The position numbers and the translations under genes are program-made. The notes under the pieces are model-generated. The model was given only the letters and a program-made list of their open reading frames with translations. It searched no databases and was not told where the DNA came from. A stretch of DNA of 64,000 nt. Source: a virus. Shown here in pieces: positions 14,155 through 61,358 of the stretch (positions are counted from its first letter, which is position 1; every line of letters begins with the position of its first letter). The DNA lies in IMG/VR virus record IMGVR_UViG_3300021963_000060, positions 35,523-99,522 of that record; one strand, given 5' to 3'.

Positions 14155-14382
14155 TCACCAGTCAGGATATTCCCACATTACTTCTTTATTTTTCTTTTTT
14201 CTTGAGCTTATTACCCTTTTTATAGAGCAAGATTTGCATTCATATGAATATGAAGATGGTTGATATTTATTTTTTCTTGTTCGATAAAATCCATCAATAA
14301 GATCTTTTACTTCACCACATGTTCTACATGTTCTTTCTGTGAGGTATAAGTGTTCTACCTGAAAATGATCATCGACATCCAT
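14155..14382 (-). CDS. Small Zn-finger-like protein (CxxC...CxxC)
   Basis: CRTC and CKSC motifs; probable start MDVDD at 14382, with TAATG overlap on the g17 stop. Confidence 0.7.
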   Translation of the reverse strand: MDVDDHFQVEHLYLTERTCRTCGEVKDLIDGFYRTRKNKYQPSSYSYECKSCSIKRVISSRKKKNKEVMWEYPDW

Positions 14383-16025
14383 TAGACATAATCCCACATA
14401 TAAGACATGTTTCCATATTCATCGGAATACCAGCGATCTCCATTATCATCCACAAAACTATCATTTTCTGTACCATTAACAATAAATCCAAATGGAGACA
14501 TATCTTGTTCTATTTGATTCTTTTGTTCTTCATATAGTCTTTTTCTTATGTCTTGATCAGTCAGTTCTTTAAAATAGTCTTGAGCAACTAACCAAGCATA
14601 GATTACTAGACACATAGCAAGGTCATCATTACAACCATCTTCTGCTTCAAATGAATTTCCCTTTTGAATAAAAGTCGTTAGTTCACTTATGATCTCATAA
14701 TCTGAGAATAATAATTTACCTTCTTCAATTAATGTTTTTAAATTTAAGCATCCAACTTTCTTAACGGTCTTGGACATCTTAACTCCAAGTTGAGTTTTCT
14801 TTCCAGAAAATCCCTGACCAACAATTTGACCTGCCCTACCTCTCATAGAGCACATAAGAACATTTTGATATTCTAGATCATAGTTTAAAATTGAAGCCAC
14901 CTGATCTCCAATATCATTTACTTCGCATAGTATATAAGCATTATTGTAATTTTTAGCTACTTCGTATATAATTGAAGGAAAGAGCATAGGTTTTATTTCA
15001 TTATTCCTATACTTTGCTACAACTTTATGGGGGAATTGAGTTATATCGGTAACTACGAAAGCAGAATAATCATTTCCAACTCCCCTAGCAACGTCCACCG
15101 TAATTATGTAATCATGCTCTTCATTTCTTTCTTCATAAACATCAAGTCCAGCATTTCTTAAGATTGGGTTATCATAAACCATCGTTCTAAGTTTGGATGG
15201 TGATATTAGAGTATCAACTGATCCCAAAAATTCACACTCAAACTCTACTTTAAACTGTTGTTCAGAAGTATTAGCTATAGTCTGCTCTTTCCACTTAGCA
15301 TCCCTACCAGGAACTTCACTCCAATGAACATCGGTGGGAATATATTCATTCTTACTTCTTTCAGCATCATGCCATATTTTATAAAAATGATTCATCCCAT
15401 GAGGGGTTGAAACAATAATTACCTTAGTGTTTTTACCAGATGAAATAGTAGGATAAACAGAACTGAAAAACTGATCAGCAATGTGGTTAGGAATAAACGC
15501 AAATTCGTCCAGGAATATAATATTATAAGAGCCACCGCGTACCGCAGAGGCGCTAGTAGAAGCAGCAATAATTTTTGACCCATTTTCTAACTCCAGAGAT
15601 GCTTTGTTCCAAGTCATTACACCCTGTTGTAACCACTTGGGTAAATTTTCGTATGCAGTTTGTAAACGATCTAATAAATCTTTTGCAGTAGATGCCTTGT
15701 TAGCAAGAATAGCAATATTTACATTATCATTAAAAATTGCATAGTGAAGGAGATATGATACAACAATAGTTGACTTACCAGACTGTCTAGGTAACTTGCA
15801 AATATTGAAACGATGATTATGAAATCTATCGATCATCAACTCTTGGAATTTATATGGTTTAAACGGTTGTAGACCATAATCCAAGGTAACGATCTGAATA
15901 TAATTTTTTGCAAAGTATATTGGATCGTCCTGACATTTAGCAAATTCTAAAACTTGCTCTTCAGTAAATTCTACAACCGTATTCGCCTTCTTTAATAAGG
16001 GATTACCAAGATAATGATCAGCCAT
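14382..16025 (-). CDS. g17: Terminase large subunit gp17
   Basis: YLGNPLLK, Walker A PRQSGKS, Walker B IIFLDEFAF, STPHG, nuclease DVARG and DDLAM. Confidence 0.98.
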   Translation of the reverse strand: MADHYLGNPLLKKANTVVEFTEEQVLEFAKCQDDPIYFAKNYIQIVTLDYGLQPFKPYKFQELMIDRFHNHRFNICKLPRQSGKSTIVVSYLLHYAIFNDNVNIAILANKASTAKDLLDRLQTAYENLPKWLQQGVMTWNKASLELENGSKIIAASTSASAVRGGSYNIIFLDEFAFIPNHIADQFFSSVYPTISSGKNTKVIIVSTPHGMNHFYKIWHDAERSKNEYIPTDVHWSEVPGRDAKWKEQTIANTSEQQFKVEFECEFLGSVDTLISPSKLRTMVYDNPILRNAGLDVYEERNEEHDYIITVDVARGVGNDYSAFVVTDITQFPHKVVAKYRNNEIKPMLFPSIIYEVAKNYNNAYILCEVNDIGDQVASILNYDLEYQNVLMCSMRGRAGQIVGQGFSGKKTQLGVKMSKTVKKVGCLNLKTLIEEGKLLFSDYEIISELTTFIQKGNSFEAEDGCNDDLAMCLVIYAWLVAQDYFKELTDQDIRKRLYEEQKNQIEQDMSPFGFIVNGTENDSFVDDNGDRWYSDEYGNMSYMWDYV

Positions 16026-16056: not shown

Positions 16057-17748
16057 TCAGCAATTCCAAGCTCTAAGTGACTTATTGATTCTGCTATCGG
16101 GATCGTTAGCAGTTTTTGCACTTGTTAGTTTTGATTTCATTCCCTTCATTCTGGCGCAAAATGACGCCCTGCGGGGATTTCCAACCTTCTTTGAAGGTGC
16201 CTTAAGGTCGCTTCCAGGATTCTCACGCTCATAAGATTTGCGTCCTTTTTCATTTAGACCGCCCTCTTTATTTTTTCCCGATTCACGAGTCCATGCGGCA
16301 GATTCTCCTAATTCTCCAAGTGCTTTTGCTTTGCGAATCTTCTTAGGATTCTTAAGTTTACCACCAGGATAGTTTCTTTCATCATTACCCTCAAAATCAG
16401 GATCTACATTAGCACGATGTCTTGCTGCTCTTTCAGGAGATGCTTTATCTGCGTGAATACCCGCTCTACGATTAGGAGCAATCTTATCTGCTGCTCTCTT
16501 TTCCTTCTGCTTCTGACGACTTCTTTGCTTTTTGAAGTCTTTTATCGTCATACCTTCTTCAATTTCAAACTCTTCTCCCATTGGTCTTATATAACCTTTA
16601 CTTGGTTTTGGGTTAGCACTGCTTCCTCCCTGAGGACCAACTGCTTGAATGAGAGCCTGTCCAGGTTGAATTTGAGAAATTGAATGATGAACTAAGCTGC
16701 AACCTGGATATACTTTTTGTAATTCATCAGTGACTTCTTTTCTGGAAGGTAATTTAGTTTGTGGGAAAAACATATTCATTGAATAATATTTTCCTCTCCA
16801 AAGCACAGTTGCTAGAATTACATTACCATTTTGCGCTTTCATTCTTGTTGTTGCCTCAGATACCATTGTTTTTTTGATATCTTCTGGTTTAATTAGATCA
16901 ATAAATTCTACAAACTTATTACCAAACATATCTTCAATTTCTAAACTTTCTGACTTAGTTTTTTTAGATTCTACTTTTTTTAACTTAGTGTAATAATCAG
17001 GAACTTCGTCCAAATGTTGTAATGCGGTTATTCTTGCTGCAGTTTTATCTGAAGTGTGCTCACCTTCAACTTTAATACCCATCTCTAATTGCTTTTTAAT
17101 TGCTTCTAGAGATACTCCATGCTTTTTAGCAATTTCTTTTGGTGACTTATATGCTTGTACAGGACCTTTTGGATCCTTTTCTTCTTTTACAGAACAATCT
17201 TTATAACCATGAACTGGACATCTTTTTTCTTTCTTAGATTTATTGCATTCACAACCTTCTTCTTGTAGAATCTTTTCAACTAAAGATAGTTCCTCTTTTT
17301 TAACAGTAGGCAAACTAACTGCTGCTGCTTTTTTCTTTTGAAGTTCTATTGCCTTTGGTCCCAATTGCTTAGCTGCATCTGGTGTTAGTGCTCCTGCACC
17401 AGAAGATTTTTTAACAGCAAAACTAATATCTTTTCCTTCAGGTACACAGTTAGGAACAGTTTTTTTACCTTTTTTCTTCATTCCAATCTGTTTGTATCCT
17501 TTCCAACATGCCTCATCAATTTCTTCATCGCTATCCAAATAGTCGGCCGCAGTATCAATATAGTCTGCTGCTTTAGTAATTTTCGATTGTACCCATGCAG
17601 GTAGTTGGGTATCTCCACTTTTTATTACTTTTTTTAATCTTTTTACAGATTTTTCAATTGTATCCATCTCATTATGAGCCATATATCCTTCATCATCCTT
17701 CCTTTTACCACTAGCAATTTCTTTGTGGTCTTCAGATAATCTTTTCAT
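16057..17748 (-). CDS. Modular Lys/Glu-rich protein, probable head-internal polyprotein
   Basis: Modules LPAWVQSKIT, CWKGY..VPNCVP, MGIKVEGEH and GGLNEKGRKSY..RRASFCARM, separated by xxE sites. Confidence 0.65.
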   Translation of the reverse strand: MKRLSEDHKEIASGKRKDDEGYMAHNEMDTIEKSVKRLKKVIKSGDTQLPAWVQSKITKAADYIDTAADYLDSDEEIDEACWKGYKQIGMKKKGKKTVPNCVPEGKDISFAVKKSSGAGALTPDAAKQLGPKAIELQKKKAAAVSLPTVKKEELSLVEKILQEEGCECNKSKKEKRCPVHGYKDCSVKEEKDPKGPVQAYKSPKEIAKKHGVSLEAIKKQLEMGIKVEGEHTSDKTAARITALQHLDEVPDYYTKLKKVESKKTKSESLEIEDMFGNKFVEFIDLIKPEDIKKTMVSEATTRMKAQNGNVILATVLWRGKYYSMNMFFPQTKLPSRKEVTDELQKVYPGCSLVHHSISQIQPGQALIQAVGPQGGSSANPKPSKGYIRPMGEEFEIEEGMTIKDFKKQRSRQKQKEKRAADKIAPNRRAGIHADKASPERAARHRANVDPDFEGNDERNYPGGKLKNPKKIRKAKALGELGESAAWTRESGKNKEGGLNEKGRKSYERENPGSDLKAPSKKVGNPRRASFCARMKGMKSKLTSAKTANDPDSRINKSLRAWNC

Positions 17749-17767: not shown

Positions 17768-18136
17768 TTATTTATTATAAAACTTTATCTCAGAGTACTC
17801 TGACTCTGTTTCTTCATTTATTTTTCTCTTTATCTCAGATCTTCTATCATTATTTTTATATACACTTCTAGCTAAAGAAATAAATTCATCCCCAAAACTA
17901 TTCTGATCTTCAAGAAGTCTTATTCTATCTTCTATCGCCCATAGTGTTCTATTAATTTGCAACAACTCAGTTACATATTTTTCAATATAAACGTTTTCTT
18001 TTTTTGCAATTTTTATAAGATCATTTAATTCCTTCATTACATTTTCATTTTTGGTATGTTGATACTTAATAGAAAGAATTGATATCTTATCTAATAGTTC
18101 ACCAATTGATATTGGAATTAATGGGCATGAATTCAT
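17768..18136 (-). CDS. DUF6165-like helical protein
   Basis: ISIGELLDKISILSIK, LWAIEDRIR, ARSVYKNNDRRSEIKRKIN. Confidence 0.75.
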   Translation of the reverse strand: MNSCPLIPISIGELLDKISILSIKYQHTKNENVMKELNDLIKIAKKENVYIEKYVTELLQINRTLWAIEDRIRLLEDQNSFGDEFISLARSVYKNNDRRSEIKRKINEETESEYSEIKFYNK

Positions 18137-19683
18137 AGTGGATTATCTAAATTGAAATTATTTTTGATTAGGTCAATCAATTCTTTATTTTTAGAAGCAA
18201 CTCCAAGTCCAAAAGTGTGAGTAAAAGTTACTTTTGGTAAATCTAGTTCTTCAAAAAATCTTTTAACTCCATATTGATTACCATTTAGTTCTTCAACACA
18301 AGTATCATGGAAAAGTATTACTCCATTTTCTTTTAAAAATGGAACCCATTTCTCATAATCATTTTTTACTGATTCATAAGCATGATCTCCATCGATATGA
18401 AGTATATCAATTTTTTTATCCCAATCTTTAGCAACGTCATCAAATAAACCTTTGATAAAAGTCACGTTATCTTGCATGAAAAGTTTTTCTCTTTTACTTA
18501 AAACATACTCATAAGATCCATGATTACCACCTGTGAATTTATCTCCTTCAAATGTATCAATACCATAAACATGCCCAATACGAGGCATTGCAAAACAGAA
18601 TGTAGAGAATCCCCAATCAACTCCAAGGTCAACAGTAACTTCTGGTTTGATATAAGAAACTAACCACTCTGCAAAATTTCTATGACCTTTCCAACATGAA
18701 GGAATATCTTCCAAGTTAGTTAAGAATAATTTATCAATAGCAGCACTTCTTTCTGGAGAAGAAAGCATATTTGGATTAAATCCAGTTGTGAAAATTGTAA
18801 GGTTTGGATTATTTACTTTTTGCGAAAGTTCAAACATATATCCAAATGCTTGTGATAAATGAGAACCTCCCATATTCATAGATTCGCTTAATGCATGAAA
18901 TGCATAGTTCATTCCACTTTGAAAATCTCCAAGAGAGAACAAGATCTGACTGCATCGAATGAAAGTTGGTATTCTAAAACTATTAAAATATGGTTTTGAT
19001 ACGTTCAAAAATTCTTGGCCATATTCCAATGATTTTTCTAAATTTTGTACACTAAAATAGTGATTAAAAATAAACCAAATATAGTACCAATTGTTTGGAT
19101 CTTTTTTATATTCTCTCTCACAAATAGAAAAATAAAAAAGTTCTTTATCAACCGTTTTATTGAGTTTTTTAGTAATTTTGATAGTCGTATCTACACTTAC
19201 TTGATTTGGATATTTTTCTGTAGAAACAAAGTTTGGAACTTCGTGTACAGCATTGACCCAAGTGTAATTATTGGTTCTATGAAAACGAGGATGAACTTCA
19301 TTCGATTGGACTGGTTCATTTTTTCCATTATCATCAAATCTCAAATGATTAAAAGTAGTAAATTCTTCCGCAATTACACTAAATCCTTCTGGATGAAATT
19401 CATCAACATCTTCATTAAAATCCAGTGCGAAAGCCCAATCAGTTTCCACATAAGAAAGTGCCTGATTTCTTGCTACAGAGAAATCAAACTCTTCCTTTGT
19501 TTGTGGATGCTCGTAAACTTTAATATTAGATTCTTTTAATAGTTCAATTGTTCTATCAGTACTTCCAGTATCGACTACGACTACATCATCAAACTTTTTT
19601 GCATTTTGAAGAAATTTTTCTACATTCTTTTCTTCGTTTTTACAAATAGAATATAATGTTACTTTCATAAGTATGTACTCCAA
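18133..19683 (-). CDS. GT2-like glycosyltransferase / helical linker / class I SAM methyltransferase (Methyltransf_24-like) fusion
   Basis: N-terminal KNEE, VVDTGSTD, FDFSVARN; C-terminal VDLGVDWGFS, IDILHIDGDHAYE, ILFHD. Confidence 0.8.
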   Translation of the reverse strand: MEYILMKVTLYSICKNEEKNVEKFLQNAKKFDDVVVVDTGSTDRTIELLKESNIKVYEHPQTKEEFDFSVARNQALSYVETDWAFALDFNEDVDEFHPEGFSVIAEEFTTFNHLRFDDNGKNEPVQSNEVHPRFHRTNNYTWVNAVHEVPNFVSTEKYPNQVSVDTTIKITKKLNKTVDKELFYFSICEREYKKDPNNWYYIWFIFNHYFSVQNLEKSLEYGQEFLNVSKPYFNSFRIPTFIRCSQILFSLGDFQSGMNYAFHALSESMNMGGSHLSQAFGYMFELSQKVNNPNLTIFTTGFNPNMLSSPERSAAIDKLFLTNLEDIPSCWKGHRNFAEWLVSYIKPEVTVDLGVDWGFSTFCFAMPRIGHVYGIDTFEGDKFTGGNHGSYEYVLSKREKLFMQDNVTFIKGLFDDVAKDWDKKIDILHIDGDHAYESVKNDYEKWVPFLKENGVILFHDTCVEELNGNQYGVKRFFEELDLPKVTFTHTFGLGVASKNKELIDLIKNNFNLDNPL

Positions 19684-20351
19684 TCAATACAAGGTGATAA
19701 AAAATCTTTGTGGCAATGTGTAGAATAACCAGGAATGCTTGAGATTAAATTGCGTCCTCTCCTATGTAGTTCTAAAAATTTTCCATGGTCCGCTGAAGGC
19801 TCGAAACCAGTAGAAAAATGTCTATGAACTTCTTGATCTTCTTTTAATGTTTTGAACTTTACGGCAAAAGTATTAGTAGTTGATGGTGTGGGCATCCAAT
19901 GTGAATATTTTGTCCTAAGAACTTTAGTCATGAAGTCTTTATACATCTCCTGATACTTGTCTCCGTGGTCGTACAAGGTCACATAATGAACTGGAAGACT
20001 AAACCCATCAATTAAAACCTTATCCCATTCGGAACGATGTACATAATCATCTTCTAAGAAATAAATGATAGTTTCATCATCAAAATCTTGAGAAAGAATA
20101 TAGTCTAAAGTCTTACAAAAACTAAGACTTTCTTTACCACAGTTGATTGTAATTGAACTCTCATCTTTGAGAAAAGTGTCCTTCTGCTTCCCATAACACT
20201 CATCAAAGATTATCGTATAATTTGTAGTCTTTTGATTTAATGTTTTCTTAAAATTATTAAATACTTTTTCTTTATCCCACCAATCTGGACGATTTGCTCC
20301 AGATAAATTGACTTTGGATGTATAACAATGTCTTAAAAATACTTCAATCAT
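19665..20351 (-). CDS. Putative GT-A fold glycosyltransferase
   Basis: IIYFLEDDYVH (DxD-like), YVTLYDH, IPGYSTH. Confidence 0.6.
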   Translation of the reverse strand: MIEVFLRHCYTSKVNLSGANRPDWWDKEKVFNNFKKTLNQKTTNYTIIFDECYGKQKDTFLKDESSITINCGKESLSFCKTLDYILSQDFDDETIIYFLEDDYVHRSEWDKVLIDGFSLPVHYVTLYDHGDKYQEMYKDFMTKVLRTKYSHWMPTPSTTNTFAVKFKTLKEDQEVHRHFSTGFEPSADHGKFLELHRRGRNLISSIPGYSTHCHKDFLSPCIDWSTYL

Positions 20352-21130
20352 ATATTAAATTTATCATAAAGTTTTACATTTTCTATACCAATTACTTCTT
20401 CTGCTGGAGGAGAAGTTCTTTGAAGTTTTGGACGAATCTGATGCAGATTATTTATTCCCCATGCATAATCCTTATCTTCAGAACAAGTGTTGAATATATT
20501 AGAAAAATCATGAGAATAAGATTCTACTTCTAAAAATTCATAAATTTTTAAAAGTTCTTTTTCTGGATTTTTTGTTAAATCGTTATAGTCAACAAGATGA
20601 ATATTATCTCTATAATTTGTTAATCCATAAACTAAACTTTCATATGGATCCGAAACATAATTTCTCCATAAGCATTCTAAACGATTATCAGTCGTGATCA
20701 TTTTTCCTTCCATTCTCAAATGAGCGTCTACAAAATTATCCTGCTCATTATTTTTTTCTATTAGTAAAATATAAGATGCTAAAACTTCACTAACTCTTCT
20801 ATTTGTTGCAATAATTTTTGGTTTTTGTTTAAGAAATTTTTCAATAGAAGAAATATTCTTACACCAAGCTCTGTGTTTATCAATAACACAGGGTTTTTCT
20901 ATATGATTATAAAAATTTTCAAGAATTGAATTATAAGTGTTATAAACTATATTTTTTTTATCGTAAGTATATTGTAAATCTATTTTAGAAAATCCATCAT
21001 CAATAAAACAGAGTAAATCTGAAAGTGGAGATGTTGGAGTTGTTTGTAATTTTGGATGCTGAGAGAGAATTGATCCAAGTAAAGTAGATCCAGATCTTGG
21101 AAGACCTGAAAGAAAAAATAATGTTTTCAT
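20348..21130 (-). CDS. PAPS-dependent sulfotransferase
   Basis: 5'-PSB motif GLPRSGSTLL..ILSQHP, DK.R.W, 3'-PB-like R..SEVLAS, YNDLTKNP. Confidence 0.85.
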   Translation of the reverse strand: MKTLFFLSGLPRSGSTLLGSILSQHPKLQTTPTSPLSDLLCFIDDGFSKIDLQYTYDKKNIVYNTYNSILENFYNHIEKPCVIDKHRAWCKNISSIEKFLKQKPKIIATNRRVSEVLASYILLIEKNNEQDNFVDAHLRMEGKMITTDNRLECLWRNYVSDPYESLVYGLTNYRDNIHLVDYNDLTKNPEKELLKIYEFLEVESYSHDFSNIFNTCSEDKDYAWGINNLHQIRPKLQRTSPPAEEVIGIENVKLYDKFNI

Positions 21131-21146
21131 AATTAATAGTAATTAT

Positions 21147-22334
21147 TTACGGATAGTTATCCTCATAAGTTATAGACATAATTTGTTGATTTGAGTGTCC
21201 AGCACTGACTCTCTTCCAGTTATTTTTACCAGCAAATGTTGTAACCGGTGTTAAAACATTCACATTAACATCTCTTACTCCTAACTGACCTAGTTGATTT
21301 CCTCCCCAAACCCACAAAGTTCCATCAGTTTTAATTGCTGCAACATGATCAACACCACAAGCAACTTGTTTCCAATTTGAATTGGTTCCTACCCTTAGAG
21401 GATCTACAGCAACTCCTCCTACTTGATTCAGACCTAATTGGCCATTACCATTATATCCCCATGTCCACAGTGTTCCATCAGTTTTAATTGCTGAGGCATG
21501 TAAATAACCCATGGAAACTTGCTTCCAATTGTTTCCCCCAGCAGTTGTTGTAACTGGTGTAGAACGATCTCCAGATCCAGCACCAAATGTTCCTATACCA
21601 CAAGCATAACTAACACCCCAAGTCCATAAAGATCCATCAGTTTTAATTGCAGCACTTCCGTATGATCCTGCGGTAACTTGTACCCAATTATTTCCCCCTG
21701 CAAATGTTGTTACTGGTGTTGATGCATCAATTGCGTTTATATTATTTCCTAATGCCCCATAAGTGTTCAGTCCCCAAGCCCACAACGTTCCATCAGTTTT
21801 GGTAGCAATTGTGTGCTTGAACCCTGCAGATACACTTTTCCAGTTATTTCCTCCAGTAAAAGTAGTAACAGGAGTAGATCTTTGAATTATGGTGTTATCG
21901 CCAAGTTGACCAGCATCATTCTGCCCCCAAGTCCATAAAGATCCATCAGTTTTAATTGCCGCTACATGACCTCTCCCAGAAGAAACTGTTCTCCAGGTTC
22001 TTTCTGTACCAACCTGTGATATTTGCAATAGGTTACCAGCTCCAAGATTTAATCCAAGTTGACCAAAAGAATTATTTCCCCAAACCCATAAAGTTCCATC
22101 TGTTTTTATTGCAGCTGAACTTAAAAGTCCTGGAGAAACTTCTTTCCAACTAGATCCTGCTGGTACAAAATCAGGAACGCTTCTAAATTCAGAAGTAGAC
22201 CCAAATCCAAGTTGAGCATGTGCATTCCTTCCTGCTGCCCATAAACTCCCTTCTCTAAACAAATCGGAAGATACTAAAACATCATCTAGAGAATATACTA
22301 CTCCGTTCTCTGTATAATTGTAAAAAGTAGGCAT
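21147..22334 (-). CDS. RCC1/BLIP-II repeat beta-propeller protein
   Basis: Seven repeats of H..AIKTDG(T/S)LW.WG.N..GQLG. Confidence 0.92.
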   Translation of the reverse strand: MPTFYNYTENGVVYSLDDVLVSSDLFREGSLWAAGRNAHAQLGFGSTSEFRSVPDFVPAGSSWKEVSPGLLSSAAIKTDGTLWVWGNNSFGQLGLNLGAGNLLQISQVGTERTWRTVSSGRGHVAAIKTDGSLWTWGQNDAGQLGDNTIIQRSTPVTTFTGGNNWKSVSAGFKHTIATKTDGTLWAWGLNTYGALGNNINAIDASTPVTTFAGGNNWVQVTAGSYGSAAIKTDGSLWTWGVSYACGIGTFGAGSGDRSTPVTTTAGGNNWKQVSMGYLHASAIKTDGTLWTWGYNGNGQLGLNQVGGVAVDPLRVGTNSNWKQVACGVDHVAAIKTDGTLWVWGGNQLGQLGVRDVNVNVLTPVTTFAGKNNWKRVSAGHSNQQIMSITYEDNYP

Positions 22335-22702
22335 TAGAGTATTTCCCAGGAATTATTATTTGAATAAATCACAGGAGTATTCATTATACTACTCCAATTT
22401 TTAAAATATTTTAATATATCCTTATTTATTTCATCTTGAGTTGAAACCAATTTGAGATATTGTCCGTTCTCATTATTTTCTACAGAGACGAGAACTCCAC
22501 ATTTATCAGGTCTCATTTCTTCAGATATAAGTTCTTGAGCCCATGCACAGAAATATCCTTCACATACTTTGGGTCTTACCTTATGAATACTGCATCCAGA
22601 TTCGCATAAGAACTTACAGGACTTTCCACCACCAAACTCATATCCATAAGCAGAACCTTGTAACCAAGTACAGCAAGCAGTACATTCTCCACATTCCCTC
22701 AT
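22334..22702 (-). CDS. Cys-cluster protein (YkgJ/CxxCxxCC family, Zn or Fe-S)
   Basis: CGECTACC, CKFL..GCSIH..RP.VC..YFC. Confidence 0.8.
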   Translation of the reverse strand: MRECGECTACCTWLQGSAYGYEFGGGKSCKFLCESGCSIHKVRPKVCEGYFCAWAQELISEEMRPDKCGVLVSVENNENGQYLKLVSTQDEINKDILKYFKNWSSIMNTPVIYSNNNSWEIL

Positions 22703-23403
22703 AAGTATTCCACCTCACTAAAGTAATGAGTATAAGGTTCATAATCACTCATACCTTTCTTTAATGGAATGGGATGATTATCGGCAATATAATCATCATC
22801 AGTATATTCCATAAATGATTTTGCCTTCACATTCTTATTGGTTCCAATCCAAAATTCTCTATCAAAACGATAATCGGTATTCAAATAGTTGTGGTCTAAT
22901 GTTTGTATATATGAAGCATTTGCCCACCAGAAGTTCCCACAGTAGCACCCAAGACCTTCATTACTCGTCATAGTCCCATCACCCCATAAGGTTGGTCCTA
23001 GAGGTTTGTAGGTCTGTCCTACACAGTCATAATCATTTAAATATTCAATACATTCTTTCCAGCGATCAATCACAAAGTATTCCATCATCAATCTCCAAGA
23101 ATTTGCAACGAGAGTTTCTTTACTAGTACCCTTCATATGAAAATATAAAATCTTATGTTCTGGATTTTCGTATGCAAAGTTTTTTAATGCTATAAGTGTT
23201 TCTGTTTCTTCTTTCCAATTTGTATTGTAAAAAACCCTTGCTTTTTCTGGTACATTGAATAATTCTTTATCACCATTAACACCAATATGGATATGATCGG
23301 CAGCGTCAACTAATCCAGAACAATATAGTCTATGAATTTGTTGCTGGTAGACAAACGCACTCATTCCAGATTGGAAAGTATGATAAAAAATTGCTATTTT
23401 CAT
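22699..23403 (-). CDS. Glycosyltransferase-like hypothetical protein
   Basis: LYFHMKG, WR..MEYF, GNFWWA motifs common in viral glycan loci. Confidence 0.5.
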   Translation of the reverse strand: MKIAIFYHTFQSGMSAFVYQQQIHRLYCSGLVDAADHIHIGVNGDKELFNVPEKARVFYNTNWKEETETLIALKNFAYENPEHKILYFHMKGTSKETLVANSWRLMMEYFVIDRWKECIEYLNDYDCVGQTYKPLGPTLWGDGTMTSNEGLGCYCGNFWWANASYIQTLDHNYLNTDYRFDREFWIGTNKNVKAKSFMEYTDDDYIADNHPIPLKKGMSDYEPYTHYFSEVEYL

Positions 23404-24167
23404 AATGAGAACCTATCTCCATCCATACCTTTAATTAAATCAAATCCAAGAACTGGAACATTTAAAATTTTATCTCTATCGATAAAATGATAGAAAGAAT
23501 GTTCTATATCAATTCCAGCAGTTAATTGAATTGCTCTTTCCATATACATAAAACTTTTTTGAAGAACATTAAAAATATCATTAAACAAGAATCTATCAAA
23601 AGACCACAGACCAGTTACAATACTTCCTTTACATCCATAAAGAAGTGAGTAAATATTTTCAATATCTTCAAATCTTTCTTCATAATCATAATACTTCATT
23701 ACATATTTGTTTGTTAAAAATTTTGTTTTATAGTCATTAATATCAAAATATTCATTTAATTTATATCTACCACTTAATTTAAATACTCTATTAACATCAC
23801 TAAATGTATTATTTTCTTGCATGTAATCTAAAACTAATTCTAAGCATCTACACTCAAGCATAGACTTTACAAATGTAAATTTATTAGGATCTCTATGTAG
23901 ATTTTCGTATAAAGCTTTGATATAAGGATCATCATAGAATTCTAAAAATAAATCAGATTGTTCTATGAATTTATTTTTATATTCTTCTTTGATAGGTTTT
24001 TCCGAGGCCTCATAGATCAAGATATATGCATCTGGAACTCTATCTTTAATAGATTTTATTGTATCTAATGTTTGTTGATATCTCTCTTCTGCATTAAAAG
24101 CACTTAAATCATCTTCTTTGAAATGATTAACTGCAGATCCAACTAAAAATAAAAACTTATAATTCAT
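23400..24167 (-). CDS. Hypothetical protein (GT-like)
   Basis: ERYQQTLDTIKSI and FKLSGRY motifs; translationally coupled within the island. Confidence 0.5.
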   Translation of the reverse strand: MNYKFLFLVGSAVNHFKEDDLSAFNAEERYQQTLDTIKSIKDRVPDAYILIYEASEKPIKEEYKNKFIEQSDLFLEFYDDPYIKALYENLHRDPNKFTFVKSMLECRCLELVLDYMQENNTFSDVNRVFKLSGRYKLNEYFDINDYKTKFLTNKYVMKYYDYEERFEDIENIYSLLYGCKGSIVTGLWSFDRFLFNDIFNVLQKSFMYMERAIQLTAGIDIEHSFYHFIDRDKILNVPVLGFDLIKGMDGDRFSL

Positions 24168-24837
24168 AAAAACAAGAAGAATGATGTGAAATAATTTTTT
24201 GATTATTTAATATATTATTTACTCTGGTTGTCCAGAGATCTGGAATAGAATCCTTAAACTTACTAATCCTAAACCAGTGATAAGTTGCTGGATATAAAGT
24301 TCCTGTTCCGTATATTCCATATCCAGAGAGTTTATATTCTTCAGGACCATCATAACCAATTGGATACATTAATTGATAAGGCATTCCAATTTGGTCTGCT
24401 CTTAAGGTAAGAAGTTGTGCAGTATCTATTTGAACTCCATTTTGCATAAACCAAGCAAAGTCTGAATTACCTAAAGTATTCCAAGCATCTTTAGTTACAA
24501 TTAAACAAGAAGCAGCAGCATAGATATGATTTCTCATTTGTGTATGAGAAATATTTTGTGCATTACCAACAAAAGATTTATTTTTTACCGCCCAGTCATA
24601 TGCTCTTTCTATCAATTCTTTATTGTGGGGAAGACAATCAATATCTAAAAAACAAGCAACTTCTTCCTTCTCCATAACAGAAGTCATAAATTTCCCATGA
24701 GACGTATAAACATCATCATAATCAGTAAAATCTTGATGATGATAGGTAACATCAATACCTACATGATCACAGACTTTTTTATGATTTTCTATAAGTTGTT
24801 CTGGAAGATTGTTTGTATAAAATGTATGAAATTTCAT
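24157..24837 (-). CDS. Putative GT-A glycosyltransferase
   Basis: CFLDIDC DxD motif. Confidence 0.55.
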   Translation of the reverse strand: MKFHTFYTNNLPEQLIENHKKVCDHVGIDVTYHHQDFTDYDDVYTSHGKFMTSVMEKEEVACFLDIDCLPHNKELIERAYDWAVKNKSFVGNAQNISHTQMRNHIYAAASCLIVTKDAWNTLGNSDFAWFMQNGVQIDTAQLLTLRADQIGMPYQLMYPIGYDGPEEYKLSGYGIYGTGTLYPATYHWFRISKFKDSIPDLWTTRVNNILNNQKIISHHSSCFYEL

Positions 24838-25292
24838 GAATAATCGGTATTAAAACTAATAATAATTCTTTCTTCTGTTTCTTCCTCTGTATAATGAACT
24901 AAATCGCTTGAGAAAATAACTAATAATCCAGGATAAGGTTGAATTGAGGTTTCTGGGAAAATGAGTGGAGTTCTTCCAGAAATATAAAATGCCCCACTTA
25001 TAATACTTTCTTCATGTCTATGTGCTTTAAGTTTATTTCCTGGTTGTGAAATATTAAACCAACTATTAATAAACTTGAGTGGTGGAATATTATATTTCTC
25101 ACAATAGATTATAATATATTCATTGATAATAGTTTTTAATCCTATCAGTTCTGGATACATCAAAACAGGCATTCCATGATTATAAGTAGAAGTGCCTCTT
25201 GTTACTAATCCATGAGAAGCAGTTTCTATTTGTAAAAGTTTTTTCTTTATAGAATTGAGATTGAGAAAAGATAAATTATACTCTTCTATCAT
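24834..25292 (-). CDS. 2OG-Fe(II) oxygenase-like protein
   Basis: SWFN, HRH, ISGAFYI, IFSS.L.H, RIIISFN. Confidence 0.8.
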   Translation of the reverse strand: MIEEYNLSFLNLNSIKKKLLQIETASHGLVTRGTSTYNHGMPVLMYPELIGLKTIINEYIIIYCEKYNIPPLKFINSWFNISQPGNKLKAHRHEESIISGAFYISGRTPLIFPETSIQPYPGLLVIFSSDLVHYTEEETEERIIISFNTDYS

Positions 25293-26625
25293 TCATAAAC
25301 TCCCAAAATTCTTTAGTTGGTTCATCCCAAGTTCTTGGTTTCTTTTGGCGGAATAGATGAACATTATCTCCATACCACATACATTTTCCTGTGGATGATG
25401 TCCAAACATAATATTCCATAATGGGTACAAAGACACAGACTTCTTTTCCCAGTGATGCTGCAACATGAGCAACAAAACTGCAAGAAGTTACAACTAAATC
25501 TAAGTTCTGGATGATGGAAAATGTATCAGCAAACTCTCTATTAGGAACTGATAGTGATTGTTTGATTTCTGGATAATCATTCGCATCTTTATTATCACTA
25601 TGAGTTTGAAGTGAATATAATGAGTATCCTTTATTTCCCAGAACACTCATATAATCTTTTAGTTCTACTGATCGGAAAGAATTTTGCTCAAATCCAGAAC
25701 TGGAAGCCCAAAACATTCCAACCTTATATTCAGTATCTTCTTTCATCCATTCCCATTTTTTATCATAATCAGGAAGTGTTTGAAGATAAGATTCTCTTCC
25801 AATATCTTTCAGTTCTAGATTAAGATAATAAGGAAGTGCAAGACCATATACCCAGCAAGCATCTTTTGGAAACTCTGGTTTATCCCAAATACAAACGGCA
25901 TCATAACCATTGTATTTAAAGAGTTCCACAAGTTCTTTTCGTGTAGAACTCCAAATTGGTTTCATTCCCAAATCTTTAAGATGTTTCATAAACCTGATAT
26001 GAATCACCTCATCACCAGCACCACACTGATTATCGATAATAATCGTTCTTCCTGGAGTGATAGTTCCATCCCACTTCTCAAAATCAGGATGCTTTTGATT
26101 CTTGTATGCTTCTACTTCTCCTGCTTTGAGAAAGTGTTGAAGTCCTGTATGAATATCATCCTTACGGAAATAGTGTCCTGATAGATTATGATATGCTTTT
26201 CTTTCAATCTCTTCTGGTAGATTCTTTTGAATAAGATTGAATAAAAGTTTTTCAGACTTTTCTTTTTGATTCAGTGCAGAATATGCAAAAGTTTCTTCCA
26301 AAAGAAGTTCAGGATCTTGAGGATTTTGTTTTTTCAGTTTTTCAATTTGAGTTATGGATTTCTCTGGATGATTTGACTGATTATAAGCATTAATCAAATT
26401 CATAGAGGTGGTATATTTTTCCTCTTTTGTTTGTGCTAGTTTAAGAGACTTTTCTCCATATTCAATTGCTTTGGAGAAGTTTTTAAGTTCAAAAAATATC
26501 TTTGCTACATCATCATATTGCGAAAATACTTGGGATTGTTTTCCAAAAGCATCAAGAAGTTCAAAAGTTAATTGTTGTTCTTTAAATGAATATAGTGTCT
26601 TTGCAACCAGTTCAAGTGGGTTCAT
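25276..26625 (-). CDS. TPR-containing GT9-like (GT-B) glycosyltransferase
   Basis: TPR-like N-terminus; QCGAGD..HIRF, LDLVVTSCSFVAHVAASLG, WY...LFRQ. Confidence 0.8.
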   Translation of the reverse strand: MNPLELVAKTLYSFKEQQLTFELLDAFGKQSQVFSQYDDVAKIFFELKNFSKAIEYGEKSLKLAQTKEEKYTTSMNLINAYNQSNHPEKSITQIEKLKKQNPQDPELLLEETFAYSALNQKEKSEKLLFNLIQKNLPEEIERKAYHNLSGHYFRKDDIHTGLQHFLKAGEVEAYKNQKHPDFEKWDGTITPGRTIIIDNQCGAGDEVIHIRFMKHLKDLGMKPIWSSTRKELVELFKYNGYDAVCIWDKPEFPKDACWVYGLALPYYLNLELKDIGRESYLQTLPDYDKKWEWMKEDTEYKVGMFWASSSGFEQNSFRSVELKDYMSVLGNKGYSLYSLQTHSDNKDANDYPEIKQSLSVPNREFADTFSIIQNLDLVVTSCSFVAHVAASLGKEVCVFVPIMEYYVWTSSTGKCMWYGDNVHLFRQKKPRTWDEPTKEFWEFMNDRRV

Positions 26626-26658
26626 ATTGAATAATTTATTTTGTAGGTATTTAGATAC

Positions 26659-27849
26659 CTACAAAATGTCTGAGGATTTTATTGCTACTGTATGAGAAGC
26701 TCCACAAGCAAGTTGTTTCCAGTTGGTTCCTCCTGCGAATGTAGTGACTGGAATGGATCTATTGGTTTGTGTATTGTCTCCTAGTTGTCCAATATGATTA
26801 CGACCCCAAGTCCATAAGGTTCCATCAGTTTTGATTGCTAATGTATGTAGACTTCCTGCACTTACTTGTTTCCAGTTAGTTCCTCCTGCGAATGTGGTGA
26901 CTGGAGTGGATCTATCAGTTGTTGTATTGTCTCCTAGTTGTCCACCAATATTATAACCCCAAGTCCATAAGGTTCCATCGGTTTTAATTGCTGCTGTATG
27001 TTCTTGTCCACAAGCAACTTGTTTCCAGTTAGTTCCTCCTGCGAATGTTGTTACTGGAGTGGATCTATCAGTTGCTGCATTGTCTCCTAGTTGTCCACTA
27101 CTATTACGACCCCAAGTCCATAAGGTTCCATCAGTTTTGATTGCTACTGTATCATTTACTCCAGCAAAAACTTGTTTCCAGTTAGTTCCTCCTGCGAATG
27201 TGGTGACTGGAGTGAATCTTTGGGTTGTTGTATTGTCTCCTACTTGCCCACTAAGATTACGACCCCAAGACCATAAAGTTCCATCAGTTTTGATTGCTGC
27301 TGTATGAATTTGACCACAAGCAACTTGTTTCCAGTTGGTTCCTCCTGCGAATATAGTGACTGGAATGGATCTATTGGTTGATGTATTGTCTCCTAGTTGT
27401 CCATAAGCATTACTCCCCCAAGTCCATAAGGTTCCATCAGTTTTGATTGCTAATGTATGTAGAAAACCTGCACTTACTTGTTTCCAGTTAGTTCCTCCTG
27501 CGAATGTGGTGACTGGAGTGAATCTTTGGGTTGTTGTATTGTCTCCTAGTTGTCCACCAATATTATAACCCCAAGTCCATAAGGTTCCATCAGTTTTGAT
27601 TGCTGAAACGTGATTAGCTCCACAACTAACCTGTTTCCAGTTTGCTCCGCCAGATAATGTTGTGACCGGAGTGGATCTATTGATTGTTGTATTCTCTCCT
27701 AGTTGTCCAGAAGAATTATTACCCCATACCCAAAGTTCTGGAGTGATTAATTGATTAGAAATATTGGGATAAACTGAAATTAAATAATCTTTCGATATAA
27801 ATTTATCGCCCAAATCTATCCCATCAGATCCTCTGAAATTTATACTCAT
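26659..27849 (-). CDS. RCC1/BLIP-II repeat beta-propeller protein
   Basis: Seven near-identical 51-aa repeats. Confidence 0.93.
26680..27735. repeat. Coding tandem repeat, 153-bp unit, ~7 copies
   Basis: TTGTTTCCAG recurs at 26713, 26866 and onward with a 153-bp period and high DNA identity. Confidence 0.9.
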
Positions 27850-27899
27850 ATTTTACAGAAAATGTTGGAGATAATAATATTATTTAGAACTAGAATCTA

Positions 27900-28349
27900 T
27901 TAATCTTTTGATTCTAATTTTGTAGATTTTAGTAGTTTAGATAATTCTGCAGTAGAACCTACAAAAAGTGCATTTGTAACATTTGTTGGCCCTTTACTTT
28001 GTTTATTATCATCAATATCCTTAAGTTTTTTCTGAAGATCCATTAACTTATCAGTAGCATCTGCAACATTTTTTATCAATTGTCCAGCAACCTCGTAAGC
28101 TCTGGGCATATCACTTTCTTGTGCTAACTCTAAAATACCATTTATAGCTTCTTGTCCTTTTTCTATAATAGAATATAAATTTCCTCTAGTATATTCATAA
28201 TCTTTTACTATATCATCTTTTATTGATGATTTATTTTCATTTTGATCCGATGGAATTATTTCTACGGAAGATTCTTTGACTTCAACTAATTCAGAAACTT
28301 CGGAATTAGTATTAAAAATATCATCCAATTTTTCATACTTTTTAGTCAT
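27900..28349 (-). CDS. g16: Terminase small subunit gp16
   Basis: DYEYTRGNLY, PRAYEVAGQLIK, NALFVGSTAEL. Confidence 0.95.
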   Translation of the reverse strand: MTKKYEKLDDIFNTNSEVSELVEVKESSVEIIPSDQNENKSSIKDDIVKDYEYTRGNLYSIIEKGQEAINGILELAQESDMPRAYEVAGQLIKNVADATDKLMDLQKKLKDIDDNKQSKGPTNVTNALFVGSTAELSKLLKSTKLESKD

Positions 28350-57519: not shown

Positions 57520-58301
57520 CAGATGATTCGTGTCTTTTCGTGTCCAACTCTGATACGAGGATCGCACCAGATTTCGAAACCTTCTTCCTTTGCATCAAGA
57601 CAGAATGATACGTCTTCACCGCACATGTCTTGTACTGCTCCGGATTCGAAGACTTGCATCTTAGGTGCAAACCAGGGATATTCGAGATTCTCAAATACAC
57701 CTTTCTTAATCAGTACCCAACCGAAACCAGTATAGTCTACGGTGAAAGGCTTACGACGCTTCTGAATTGAATCTACGGTTTCGTGATTCATGACTCCACC
57801 ATTACGACGGAAATCATCTTCATCCAACCAGTGAGCTACGGATGTCGTATGACCATCTTCTGTAGCGTACCAACCAGCAGCAATCTCTCGTTCTACAACA
57901 TTACCTTCTTCATCAGCAGATAGTGCTAGATCACAGAGTTGCCAGAATTTTTCAGTATTGAAAACAATATCACTATCAATCCAGAGTTGATAATCATACT
58001 GTAGTTTGCCGTCCCAGGGAATCTGCTTTGGACCCCTCAGAACGTTTGCTCCGAGACATTTGCAACGAGCAAAGTTTACCATTGATGAGTAATCCTGAGA
58101 AATTTGGATACTCATTCCGTTCTGCACTAGATCAAAACACAGTTGCACAAATGCTTTCAGAAAAGTAAATGAACATCCCCTACCAGGTAGGCAGAATACA
58201 ATCGACTTCCCTCGCATTCTTTCTTTGATAGCATCATAATCCCATTCTTCTTTGGGTGCTGTAATGGGACTTTTTGCTTTTACAGTGAATCCTTTAGCCA
58301 T
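57519..58301 (-). CDS. Conserved cyanophage GT2-like glycosyltransferase
   Basis: WIDSD DxD motif, TGFGWVLIK..VFE, GEDVSFC, VGHEK. Confidence 0.75.
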   Translation of the reverse strand: MAKGFTVKAKSPITAPKEEWDYDAIKERMRGKSIVFCLPGRGCSFTFLKAFVQLCFDLVQNGMSIQISQDYSSMVNFARCKCLGANVLRGPKQIPWDGKLQYDYQLWIDSDIVFNTEKFWQLCDLALSADEEGNVVEREIAAGWYATEDGHTTSVAHWLDEDDFRRNGGVMNHETVDSIQKRRKPFTVDYTGFGWVLIKKGVFENLEYPWFAPKMQVFESGAVQDMCGEDVSFCLDAKEEGFEIWCDPRIRVGHEKTRII

Positions 58302-58350
58302 AAGTTTCAGTAACCTTCAAGATCAATTTTATCGTCTTATTTATGCTTTG

Positions 58351-58542
58351 TCAATGTGAGGCATCCTCGAATATTTTTCGATTCACACTCAGTTCCTCAA
58401 AGCTCAAATCTTCGATATTATAGTCGGTTTTCATTAGACCTACCATATTTTTTAAAGTCATCCAAATCACAGGAAACTCGTCCTCACTCACAGAATGGAA
58501 GAGGCACCGATCCTTAGCATAAATGTGATATACTTTTTCCAT
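58351..58542 (-). CDS. Small hypothetical protein
   Basis: 63-aa ORF, co-directional with neighbours. Confidence 0.65.
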   Translation of the reverse strand: MEKVYHIYAKDRCLFHSVSEDEFPVIWMTLKNMVGLMKTDYNIEDLSFEELSVNRKIFEDASH

Positions 58543-58813
58543 ATGGTCTATTTTTTCCCCTCAAAAATTTTTTTTGTTGACTTCAGAGTATATATGAGTT
58601 TTCTCTGAAATCCTATGGGGCGGTTTTTTGTACCGGGAAAAATTTTTTTAGAACACATTCACTCTCTCATTTTGTCACCTCTGTAGGTTAGGGTAGTTAT
58701 CGTTTTTTAAATCAGGGCGCGCCGCCATAACGATAACGTTATACCATAAACTGCTGATCACGAATGCTCCGCACGAATGGGGGGGGCAAGCGTGAGTGCC
58801 TGCCCCTGCCGTC

Positions 58814-58999
58814 TCACCCGATGCCGCGATAATCGGTGTGCAGTCCAGCCAACTCAGCGGCGCAGAATCCGTCGATTCCGTCCCGAGCATAAGCGGCGGA
58901 AGAATGAGAATTCAACTGCGGGCGACCCTTCACCACGTTGGTGCTGACCCATACGGTCTGGCGGGTGGCGAGGTCGGTTGCGATGTTGTAGAGCGCCAT
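58814..58999 (-). CDS. Early hypothetical protein
   Basis: 61-aa ORF directly behind the promoter cassette at 59011-59053. Confidence 0.65.
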   Translation of the reverse strand: MALYNIATDLATRQTVWVSTNVVKGRPQLNSHSSAAYARDGIDGFCAAELAGLHTDYRGIG

Positions 59000-59061
59000 G
59001 GGGAGGTGGTGTGAACTGGAGCCAGTATAGCAGATCGGGGGGCGATGCCCCCCTCAGCGGA

Positions 59062-59253
59062 TCAGTAGCGGATCGGCACGTAAGCGACGGTGACCTCTAC
59101 GTAGAGGGGCTCATCGGTGTTGTAGTCGTCCATCCGCTTACGAAGGCCGGCGGCGTCTGCCTCTGCCTTCTCAGCGGTGGCGTAGAGTCCGAACAGTTCG
59201 GGACGATCGTAGTAGTCGTTGCCCGTGGTGAAGATGGCGTATGCTTCGGTCAT
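59062..59253 (-). CDS. Early hypothetical protein
   Basis: 63-aa ORF behind a cassette. Confidence 0.7.
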   Translation of the reverse strand: MTEAYAIFTTGNDYYDRPELFGLYATAEKAEADAAGLRKRMDDYNTDEPLYVEVTVAYVPIRY

Positions 59254-59319
59254 CGGATCGGATCGGTTGACTTGGCCAGTATAGCAGATCAGGAGGAGGG
59301 GGGAGGTCCCCCCATCGGG

Positions 59320-59550
59320 TCAGTATCCCAGCCAGTTCAGGAATTCGCCAGTGTCGATCCGCTCGCCCTGCAGATGCCCGTAATCCTTACGGAACTGATA
59401 GAGGCAATCGGGACCGTGCATGTCGGCGGATTCCAGAGCGATGTGCCAGGCGATGGTGTCGTTGGCGGGGTGAGTACAATCCCAGAGGATGTCGCTGAAC
59501 GTGGTGCCAGGAGCGTAAACGTTCAGGCAATCGCGGAGGGCGGTGGTCAT
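59320..59550 (-). CDS. Early hypothetical protein
   Basis: 76-aa ORF ending FLNWLGY, behind a cassette. Confidence 0.7.
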   Translation of the reverse strand: MTTALRDCLNVYAPGTTFSDILWDCTHPANDTIAWHIALESADMHGPDCLYQFRKDYGHLQGERIDTGEFLNWLGY

Positions 59551-59596
59551 CGGATCGGATCGGTTGACTTGGCTAGTGTAGCAGATCGGGGACCGC

Positions 59597-59935
59597 CTAG
59601 GCGGCGGTGAACTGATCGTAGTATTCAGACTCCAGGTGATCCGCTTCCATCTCCCTGATGATGTCGCAGGTCAGACCCTCCAGGGATTGGCGGCAGTGAA
59701 CCAGCTCGTGGATCAGGGTCAGGATGTAGTCTTTGCGGGTCAGGTCGCGCTCAATGTCGATCAGGAATTCGTGGTCGGTTTCCTGCTGCTGCCATCCTAC
59801 CACACCCTCAGCAGTCAGGCGGCGGTGGTGAACCGTGACGGTAGCAGCGCCGAGCAGCGGTTCCTGATCGAGCATGAAGCGGTAGACCTGTTGGGCGAGG
59901 CGGGGGCGTTGCTTCTGTCCAGAGGTGAGCAGCAT
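59597..59935 (-). CDS. HExxH zinc-metallopeptidase-like protein
   Basis: LTLIHELVHCRQ plus downstream E.EA motif. Confidence 0.65.
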   Translation of the reverse strand: MLLTSGQKQRPRLAQQVYRFMLDQEPLLGAATVTVHHRRLTAEGVVGWQQQETDHEFLIDIERDLTRKDYILTLIHELVHCRQSLEGLTCDIIREMEADHLESEYYDQFTAA

Positions 59936-61338: not shown

Positions 61339-61358
61339 CGGTTGTTGTTAGTTTGTGA

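Follow-up and report, generated by a model that had tools for sequence, protein, structure and literature searches.

Twelve genes of a T4-like cyanomyovirus form a cassette in which two RCC1 propeller proteins are encoded among glycosyltransferases (GTs) and other modifying enzymes. The cassette occupies positions 17768-27849 of the window, that is, the whole 64,000-nt stretch of DNA analysed here, which forms the end of a 99.5-kb virus record in IMG/VR (IMGVR_UViG_3300021963_000060, estimated to be 46% complete). Its enzymes are proposed to modify the phage's own RCC1 propellers by glycosylation, sulfation and methylation in the host cytoplasm before assembly, a reading to which we give an even chance of being correct. 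The propellers would be structural or host-binding proteins of the phage, normally part of the tail-fibre module. This reading is favoured because the enzymes are soluble and include two transferases of protein-directed type, with a TPR docking domain like that of FlmG and OGT, and because a repeat protein is encoded next to the lead enzyme, as in TibC/TibA, in a late structural operon to which the propellers appear to have moved together with the enzymes. It is also favoured by the conservation of the unit in a fixed order, by the persistence of the link between RCC1 and GT9-like genes as far as the phage BUCT-ZZ01, and by the accessory genes of sister cassettes, which are more glycan tailoring enzymes. 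Finally, promoter-like motifs lie in all three intergenic gaps of the cassette, and an RCC1 protein of the jumbo phage GAP32 was identified by mass spectrometry as a structural protein (PMC5259590), both of which argue in the same direction.

A conserved gene unit around RCC1 propellers

The initial annotation of this DNA, made from its sequence alone, described twelve co-directional and mostly overlapping genes, and both the open reading frames (ORFs) and their order are as it described them. All twelve genes are on the minus strand and overlap at nine of the eleven internal junctions, by 1-17 nt: TPR/2OG (2-oxoglutarate oxygenase; 17 nt), 2OG/u226 (4 nt), u226/u255 (11 nt), u255/u234 and u234/cys122 (4 nt each), cys122/RCC1b (1 nt), sulfotransferase/u228 (4 nt), u228/GT2-MT (GT2-methyltransferase) and GT2-MT/DUF6165 (4 nt). 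The u228/GT2-MT overlap is 4 nt (ATGA) from ATG 19668, or 19 nt from TTG 19683; the annotation of the GT2-MT homologue in the isolate S-SRM01 uses the start equivalent to ATG 19668. Gaps of 33 and 16 nt separate RCC1a from the TPR gene and RCC1b from the sulfotransferase gene, respectively. The features of the region are, in the direction of transcription:

27900..28349, minus strand: g16, small terminase subunit, upstream border of the insertion (Pfam DNA_Packaging 3.7e-8)
27881..27887, minus strand: CTAAATA late-promoter-like motif, 38 nt upstream of the RCC1a start
26659..27849, minus strand: RCC1a, class A seven-bladed RCC1 propeller (Pfam RCC1)
26643..26662, minus strand: 8-bp hairpin between RCC1a and the TPR gene, with CTAAATA (26648-26654) in and beside the loop
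25276..26625, minus strand: TPR + GT9-like GT-B enzyme (AlphaFold model, structure matches)
24834..25292, minus strand: 2OG-Fe(II) oxygenase, optional member (2OG-FeII_Oxy_5 / TIGR02466)
24157..24837, minus strand: u226, soluble, strand-DID motif, optional member (motif only)
23400..24167, minus strand: u255, core member, large unnamed family (family clusters, natural fusions)
22699..23403, minus strand: u234, GT-A fold, DUF8361-like (model and Atlas DUF8361)
22334..22702, minus strand: cys122, 10-Cys protein, phrog_9155 (PHROG match, CxxCxxCC motif)
21147..22334, minus strand: RCC1b, class B seven-bladed RCC1 propeller (Pfam RCC1)
21144..21150, minus strand: GTAAATA motif, 20 nt upstream of the sulfotransferase start
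20348..21130, minus strand: PAPS-type (3'-phosphoadenosine 5'-phosphosulfate) sulfotransferase, phrog_27463 (Pfam Sulfotransfer_1/3)
19665..20351, minus strand: u228, probable GT-A transferase, EDD motif (motif, Atlas neighbour)
18133..19683, minus strand: GT2 domain, helical linker and Methyltransf_24, likely start ATG 19668 (Pfam)
17768..18136, minus strand: DUF6165/DUF4254 small helical protein, last cassette gene (Pfam DUF6165 5e-12)
16057..17748, minus strand: 563-aa DUF5661/DUF6321 protein, downstream border of the insertion (Pfam; contigs bridge the junction)
14382..16025, minus strand: g17, large terminase subunit (Pfam Terminase_6N/6C)

The initial annotation made its proposed modification pathway depend on these genes co-occurring across genomes, and they do. 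A search with the TPR-GT9-like protein recovered the same unit in about 80 uncultured viral contigs (47+34 IMG/VR loci) and in S-SRM01, in the same order throughout: RCC1, TPR-GT9, (2OG and/or u226), u255, u234, cys122, RCC1, sulfotransferase, u228, GT2-MT, DUF6165. Among the 40 distinct cassettes with enough flanking sequence, the gene that accompanies the GT9-like gene most faithfully is cys122, present in all 40, including the locus of a 39%-identical homologue (L048). The sulfotransferase and RCC1 are each found in 39 of these 40 cassettes, u228 and u255 in 38, GT2-MT and u234 in 37, DUF6165 in 33, the 2OG oxygenase in 32 and u226 in 19. In 37 of 38 lineages, less than 300 nt separate the TPR gene from the end of an RCC1 gene upstream of it. 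Additional tailoring genes of sister cassettes encode GT2 enzymes, a 2OG and GT25 pair, FkbM methyltransferases and an RXYLT1-like protein, and the S-SRM01 cassette also includes a sugar dehydratase/epimerase.

At these other loci, the cassette is preceded by a collagen-repeat/Peptidase_S74 fibre gene, an RCC1 gene of a further class (X) that is translationally coupled to the fibre gene, and a DUF4376 gene; collagen-repeat fibres are usually found on both sides. In the lake phage BUCT-ZZ01, whose host is Synechococcus elongatus PCC 7942, genes for a tail fibre, a tail assembly chaperone and a 700-aa RCC1 protein are followed by one for a 571-aa GT9-like-methyltransferase protein, 26% identical to the window enzyme (E 3e-29). 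The RCC1 gene of this phage (ON615601.1, 4800-6902), annotated as 'BNR repeat domain protein', encodes a double propeller of 13 RCC1 repeats (Pfam RCC1 2e-130).

Both propellers of the window score above the curated Pfam cut-off for RCC1 repeats (PF00415, PF25390), RCC1a with E ~1e-82 (270 bits, 7 stretches) and RCC1b with E 1e-53 (180 bits, 6 stretches). They are 51% identical to each other and, in BLAST comparisons, are the only related pair among the window proteins. Their relatives include UVR8 and HERC proteins (1e-60 to 1e-37; RCC1a versus UVR8, E 1e-59). RCC1a is built of seven near-identical 51-aa blades, with TPVTT in each blade, and contains 14 N-x-S/T sequons (3.5 per 100 aa), versus 0.4-1.6 per 100 aa for the rest of the region's proteins. 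The blades differ mainly in three short loop segments, which recur in varying combinations. RCC1 genes of the cassette loci fall into three classes (A, B and X) according to conserved N-termini of about 35 aa, the class-A N-terminus of RCC1a being kept across loci, and their products range from about 290 to 2291 aa. Blade expansion accounts for the longest of them: dozens of blades per ORF are found in the giant RCC1 genes of L038 (3095-9970, 2291 aa) and L039 (14308-18963, 1551 aa), which occupy the class-A and class-B positions in otherwise ordinary cassettes.

Domains and folds of the cassette enzymes

Most domain calls of the initial annotation stood, by structure for the TPR-GT9 protein and by Pfam for the two RCC1 proteins, the 2OG oxygenase, the sulfotransferase, GT2-MT and the DUF6165 protein. 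In the AlphaFold model of the 449-aa TPR-GT9-like protein (mean predicted local distance difference test score, pLDDT, 84), residues 1-175 form a TPR domain of ten helices and residues 186-449 a GT-B domain. The latter superposes on GT9 chains with VIA Z-scores of 17.0 for 3tov (247 residues, root-mean-square deviation 3.1), 16.0 for WaaF and 15.1-15.6 for WaaC, and with a Z of 15.7 on the protein heptosyltransferase TibC, over 239 aligned residues. Whole-chain Foldseek searches place SPY/OGT architectures nearest. The GT9 call thus holds by structure (GT9 chains, Z 15-17) but not by Pfam, where GT9 (PF01075) reached 12.1 bits against a gathering cut-off of 22 (E 0.12) and covered residues 329-396 only; the enzyme is therefore called GT9-like and not filed as a GT9 member. 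Pfam GT41 did not match, and GT9 chains superpose better than GT41 chains. When alignment profiles of the TPR protein, u226 and u228 were compared with PDB sequences, TPR noise or no match was returned. A bacterial relative of the enzyme, a 715-aa TPR + GT9 protein, was found in an alphaproteobacterial metagenome-assembled genome (JBGCED010000027.1, 6123-11127), where its gene is convergent with a GT4 gene and a gene for a bifunctional PfkB kinase/cytidylyltransferase (HldE-like, ADP-heptose synthesis).

GT2-MT combines Glycos_transf_2 (E 2e-9) with Methyltransf_24 (E 1e-22) and matches the SunS family of NCBIfam. SunS is the peptide S-glycosyltransferase of sublancin. Among solved structures, GmaR (3.9e-11) and SunS (1.5e-5) are closest to the GT2 domain. 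The family of u255 comprises 1430 representative clusters and is unnamed; in other organisms, some members are natural fusions to TPR + GT41 and to a nucleotide-sugar transferase domain (P0265, P0205), and a word-indexed homologue search with u255 returned close relatives only, with no Pfam domains. A protein-directed type is favoured for the TPR-GT9-like enzyme and the GT2 domain because of the TibC-like fold, the OGT/SPY architecture, the GmaR and SunS relatives and the u255 fusions to TPR + GT41.

Two further proteins resemble GT-A transferases. The model of u234 (pLDDT 75) has a GT-A fold and matches heparosan synthase (VIA Z 13.4) as well as mannosylglycerate and hyaluronan synthases (12.7); the LH3/ColGalT1 complex is also among its GT-A structure matches. 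In u234, H-x-K-G takes the place of the usual DxD; cytidylyltransferases, which belong to the same superfamily, reach similar scores and rank first by Foldseek. u228 has an EDD motif and, as its ESM Atlas neighbour, a GT2 cluster at 0.97; searches with hidden Markov models found no match for it. u226 may be a transferase too, as the initial annotation had called it from its DID motif; profile and homologue searches found neither a family match nor longer relatives. hhalign comparisons among u226, u255, u234 and u228 revealed no relation.

The sulfotransferase scores 54.9 and 53.3 bits with PF00685 and PF13469 (E 1e-14), whose cut-offs are 22 and 27, and only its PAPS loop (residues 4-33) aligns to solved TPST and CurM chains. 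The 2OG oxygenase matches Pfam 2OG-FeII_Oxy_5 with E 4e-13. cys122 contains ten Cys residues, with CxxCxxCC at its start.

Membrane segments are absent from all cassette proteins (19-residue hydropathy at most 1.55), and no flippase, polymerase or initiating transferase family, as needed for the membrane steps of O-antigen or lipopolysaccharide (LPS) synthesis, was matched among them. The remark of the initial annotation that nucleotide-sugar synthesis genes are absent is borne out across the 99.5 kb of the record, where no Epimerase, NTP_transferase, SIS or HldE-type sugar-activation gene was found. A 407-aa ORF with a CTP_transf_like (nucleotidyltransferase) domain lies outside the window (G000:C1:11771-12199), and similar ORFs are present in S-SRM01 and two relatives.

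Position between the terminase genes and transfer of the unit

The insertion site of the cassette is between g16 and the DUF5661 gene, inside the g15-g18 interval and within the late structural operon: g13-g15, g16, g17, g18-g20 and other late genes are all on the minus strand, g15 being confirmed in the flank by Pfam. This interval is a known hypervariable region of cyanomyoviruses (PMC2984593), as the initial annotation stated. That the cassette splits the terminase genes, as was also claimed, is true of the window genome, in which it separates g16 from g17 together with the DUF5661/DUF6321 gene, but it is not a property of the system, which usually resides in the tail-fibre module. The distance between g15 and g17 is 2-4.5 kb in both S-SRM01 and a complete 258-kb relative, and in these two genomes the cassette is about 100 kb away. 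All 16 g16 loci that also hold g17 have a gap of 1.8-3.8 kb without any cassette gene, and none of g16, g17 and the DUF5661 gene lies near the cassette in any other locus. The DUF5661/DUF6321 gene is a native occupant of the g16-g17 gap; it is found there in L092 as well. Its 563-aa product, encoded between the cassette and g17, is rich in Lys and Arg.

The placement is real, since independent Logan contigs bridge both junctions with 0-1 mismatches: g16/RCC1a in X1 (record 7) and X4 (record 30), and DUF6165/DUF5661 in X1 (record 2) and X3 (record 19). This evidence comes from at least three independent studies, not counting the X2 contigs, which mirror those of X1 exactly and are possibly the same data twice. 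An assembly chimera at the terminase placement was considered and rejected, as contigs of different studies bridge both junctions.

The portal protein is closest (~79% identity) to its counterparts in marine isolates, among them S-SCSM1, S-SM2 and Bellamy, indicating a marine-type backbone, while the TPR-GT9-like protein is 92% identical to that of the freshwater phage S-SRM01 and matches only 4 of 50,697 phage records. Compared with S-SRM01, the cassette proteins are 85-92% identical and g15 and g17 60-77%. This difference between cassette and backbone points to horizontal transfer of RCC1a to DUF6165 as a unit, with an S-SRM01-like freshwater lineage as the source. Collagen and S74 domains were not found in the 99.5 kb of the record (46% complete), and RCC1_X and the DUF4376 gene were likewise not brought along; since these were left behind, it is the propellers, not the fibre, that would travel with the enzymes. 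No direct repeat of at least 10 nt common to both insertion junctions was found, and the GC content of the cassette, overall and at third codon positions, is like that of the backbone, so that composition gives no sign of recent foreign origin. Metagenomes with bridging contigs are from aquatic, estuarine and marine samples. The initial framing of the system as one of freshwater cyanophages is thus too narrow, given the marine-type backbone and these estuarine and marine occurrences.

The three intergenic gaps, which together span 99 nt, contain one motif of the form C/GTAAATA each, at the positions given by the initial annotation: CTAAATA at 27887-27881 and 26654-26648, and GTAAATA at 21150-21144. 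About 0.03 would be expected in 99 nt, from 17 per 64 kb on the minus strand. The cyanomyovirus late promoter is NATAAATA (PMC2984593); this canonical form has 20 copies on the minus strand, mostly 22-44 nt before late genes, and none on the plus strand. Late-promoter-like motifs are thus present in the gaps, as had been noted, but as the C/G variant and not as canonical NATAAATA. Upstream of the TPR gene, TCTAAATAC is kept in most related lineages, and in some others a TATAAT-like element takes its place. Judging from these motifs, late expression of the cassette is plausible. A canonical NATAAATA is also located 28 nt upstream of the DUF5661/DUF6321 gene, within the 3' end of the DUF6165 gene. 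In RNA runs, only 4-5% of sampled words were found.

Away from the cassette, positions 58300-64000 of the window stand out by a GC content of 0.45-0.60, versus about 0.31 in the rest, and by ORFs that overlap on both strands, none of which exceeds 250 aa. tRNA and Rfam matches were looked for in this segment and none was found. It nevertheless is phage DNA, because it has a patchy 73% match to S-PM2 and other Synechococcus phages, in a region where these carry small hypothetical genes; contamination as the source of this high-GC end was rejected on the same ground. One gene of the matching S-PM2 region is annotated as 'anti-restriction protein'.

Candidate substrates and known systems

If the RCC1 propellers are the substrates, the TPR domain of the GT9-like enzyme would dock on the repeat protein, and its GT-B domain would attach the first sugar to a Ser, Thr or Asn residue of the loops that recur in the blades. 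The GT-A enzymes (u234, u228 and the GT2 domain, perhaps also u226 and u255) would then extend the glycan, which the methyltransferase and sulfotransferase would cap, while the 2OG oxygenase could hydroxylate the acceptor residue or a sugar. Nucleotide sugars, PAPS, S-adenosylmethionine and 2-oxoglutarate would all be supplied by the host. Several observations weigh against this scheme. A modified virion, glycan or sulfate has been reported for none of these phages, no virion proteome places cyanophage RCC1 proteins in particles, and no activity is assigned to u226, u255, cys122 or the DUF6165 protein. The association with RCC1 is not universal: the locus of the 39%-identical homologue (L048) keeps TPR-GT9, cys122, a methyltransferase and two sulfotransferases with no RCC1 within 10 kb, L147, L158 and L166 are without RCC1_B, and the one bacterial TPR-GT9 relative found in a scan of genome contigs has no RCC1 nearby. 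The capsule multienzyme 8qoy ranks second by Foldseek for the TPR-GT9-like model, TPR-fused transferases thus occurring in polysaccharide synthesis too, and soluble GT2 and GT9 enzymes can act on lipid-linked glycans at the membrane face. Finally, a heptose pathway (SIS/GmhA, HldE) was not found in the phage's own record or in the complete relative (G001), and canonical NATAAATA is absent from the gaps, whose three motifs are of the C/G variant.

Alternatively, the enzymes could remodel the host surface, altering LPS, O-chain or sulfated exopolysaccharide so as to block superinfection or re-adsorption of progeny to debris, with the RCC1 proteins as receptor-binding proteins whose specificity co-varies with the altered glycan. 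This is the standard reading of fibre-region glycosyltransferase clusters in aquatic T4-like phages (PMC7029224), among which P-SSM2 has 24 LPS genes (PMC2984593), and it agrees with the classical role of GT9, GT25 and GT2 as LPS enzyme families, with the HldE-like ADP-heptose gene and GT4 gene beside the bacterial TPR-GT9 relative, and with a varying enzyme content reminiscent of O-antigen cluster diversity. Although it is a serious competitor, we regard it as rather unlikely, because the cassette lacks membrane segments, flippase, polymerase and initiating transferase, lies inside late structural operons where it is translationally coupled to fibre and RCC1 genes, and encodes a GT2 domain whose nearest solved relatives are protein or peptide transferases. 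In addition, the RCC1-GT9 pairing persists at 26% identity, and late expression in a lytic phage would leave little time for rebuilding the envelope.

Other virion proteins could instead be decorated, such as collagen-like fibres, giant fibre proteins, capsid or sheath, with RCC1 proteins acting as unmodified adhesins, scaffolds or chaperones. Collagen-repeat fibres do flank the usual cassette on both sides, and the 2OG and GT25 pair of sister cassettes recalls collagen hydroxylysine glycosylation, as does the LH3/ColGalT1 complex among the GT-A matches; mycobacteriophage transferases modify capsid and tail tube (PMC11600133). Yet the unit that moved left the collagen/S74 fibre behind, with neither domain in the 99.5 kb of this 46%-complete record, and RCC1 is the constant neighbour, which makes this alternative distinctly unlikely. 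The glycan coat on virion proteins in general that the initial annotation envisaged has weaker support than RCC1 modification. Hypermodification of DNA, for which the glucosylated DNA of T-even phages is a precedent and one PHROG match labels the methyltransferase domain 'DNA methyltransferase', appears very improbable, as does synthesis of a sulfated glycolipid or natural product. Matches to base-hydroxymethylase and DNA-glycosyltransferase families were lacking, the methyltransferase is of the O-methyltransferase type (Methyltransf_24/TylF-like), the cassette is found in fibre and structural modules with RCC1 genes and not in nucleotide-metabolism modules, and no carrier, polyketide synthase or nonribosomal peptide synthetase genes are present.

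Modification of the RCC1 propellers, if it takes place, would represent a new post-translational chemistry on phage attachment structures, combining glycan, sulfate and methyl groups and possibly hydroxylation. A bolder proposal, which we advance tentatively and which could well prove wrong, is that the fibres of cyanophages bear propellers that are sulfated and methylated glycoproteins, the first case of a sulfated glycoprotein to be reported from a bacteriophage. The cassette would then be a portable adhesin with its own glycan factory, hopping between distant backbones across the freshwater-marine boundary, in the present case into an estuarine phage at its terminase gap, and carrying a host-recognition or virion-protection trait. 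Glycosyltransferase clusters of aquatic T4-like phages are routinely dismissed as host-LPS genes, and to our knowledge virion glycosylation by phage-encoded enzymes has so far been documented essentially for mycobacteriophages. Propeller modification would explain a widespread and unannotated gene set, the u255 family alone having about 1400 representative clusters, and would bear on the prediction of host range and particle stability of abundant cyanophages. The window is informative in this respect, as it delimits the functional unit naturally, only RCC1a through DUF6165 having moved, and gives evidence of unit transfer between freshwater-type and marine-type phages. The cultured phages S-SRM01 and BUCT-ZZ01, the latter on the genetically tractable S. 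elongatus PCC 7942, make the idea directly testable.

Several known systems share parts of this organization. In TibC/TibA and Aah/AIDA-I (PMC4358343), a soluble cytoplasmic GT9-like GT-B enzyme is encoded beside a highly repetitive protein, as in the cassette; TibC hyperglycosylates a repeat adhesin (PMC4358343). The N-terminus of the cassette enzyme is however a TPR solenoid, whereas that of TibC is a beta-barrel. The TibC family is further characterised by an iron-finger and a ring dodecamer. In the cassette, a separate 10-Cys protein and many tailoring enzymes accompany the GT9-like enzyme, and an RCC1 propeller stands in the place of the beta-helix partner. FlmG of Caulobacter crescentus, whose TPR domain binds the protein substrate (PMC7591256), and OGT/SPY share with the cassette enzyme an N-terminal TPR domain and a C-terminal GT-B catalytic domain; in contrast to OGT/SPY, the latter superposes better on GT9 than on GT41. 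GmaR, a Listeria flagellar glycosyltransferase, has a GT domain followed by a TPR region (PMC3150276), and a helical region likewise follows the GT2 domain of GT2-MT, which differs from GmaR and SunS in ending with a Methyltransf_24 domain. The variable, glycosyltransferase-rich LPS/O-chain clusters of aquatic T4-like phages (PMC7029224; P-SSM2, PMC2984593) are also located beside tail-fibre genes, but the cassette is a fixed-order unit around RCC1, with lead enzymes of protein-transferase type and no sugar-nucleotide or membrane steps. In mycobacteriophages, as summarised in the citing article (Freeman et al. 2023, cited in PMC11600133), tandem glycosyltransferases and an O-methyltransferase encoded in the structural region act on the phage's own virion proteins. 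Compared with these, the cassette has other enzyme families, adds a sulfotransferase and a 2OG oxygenase, belongs to phages of cyanobacteria, and has as its presumed substrate, judging from genes, RCC1 propellers rather than capsid and tail tube.

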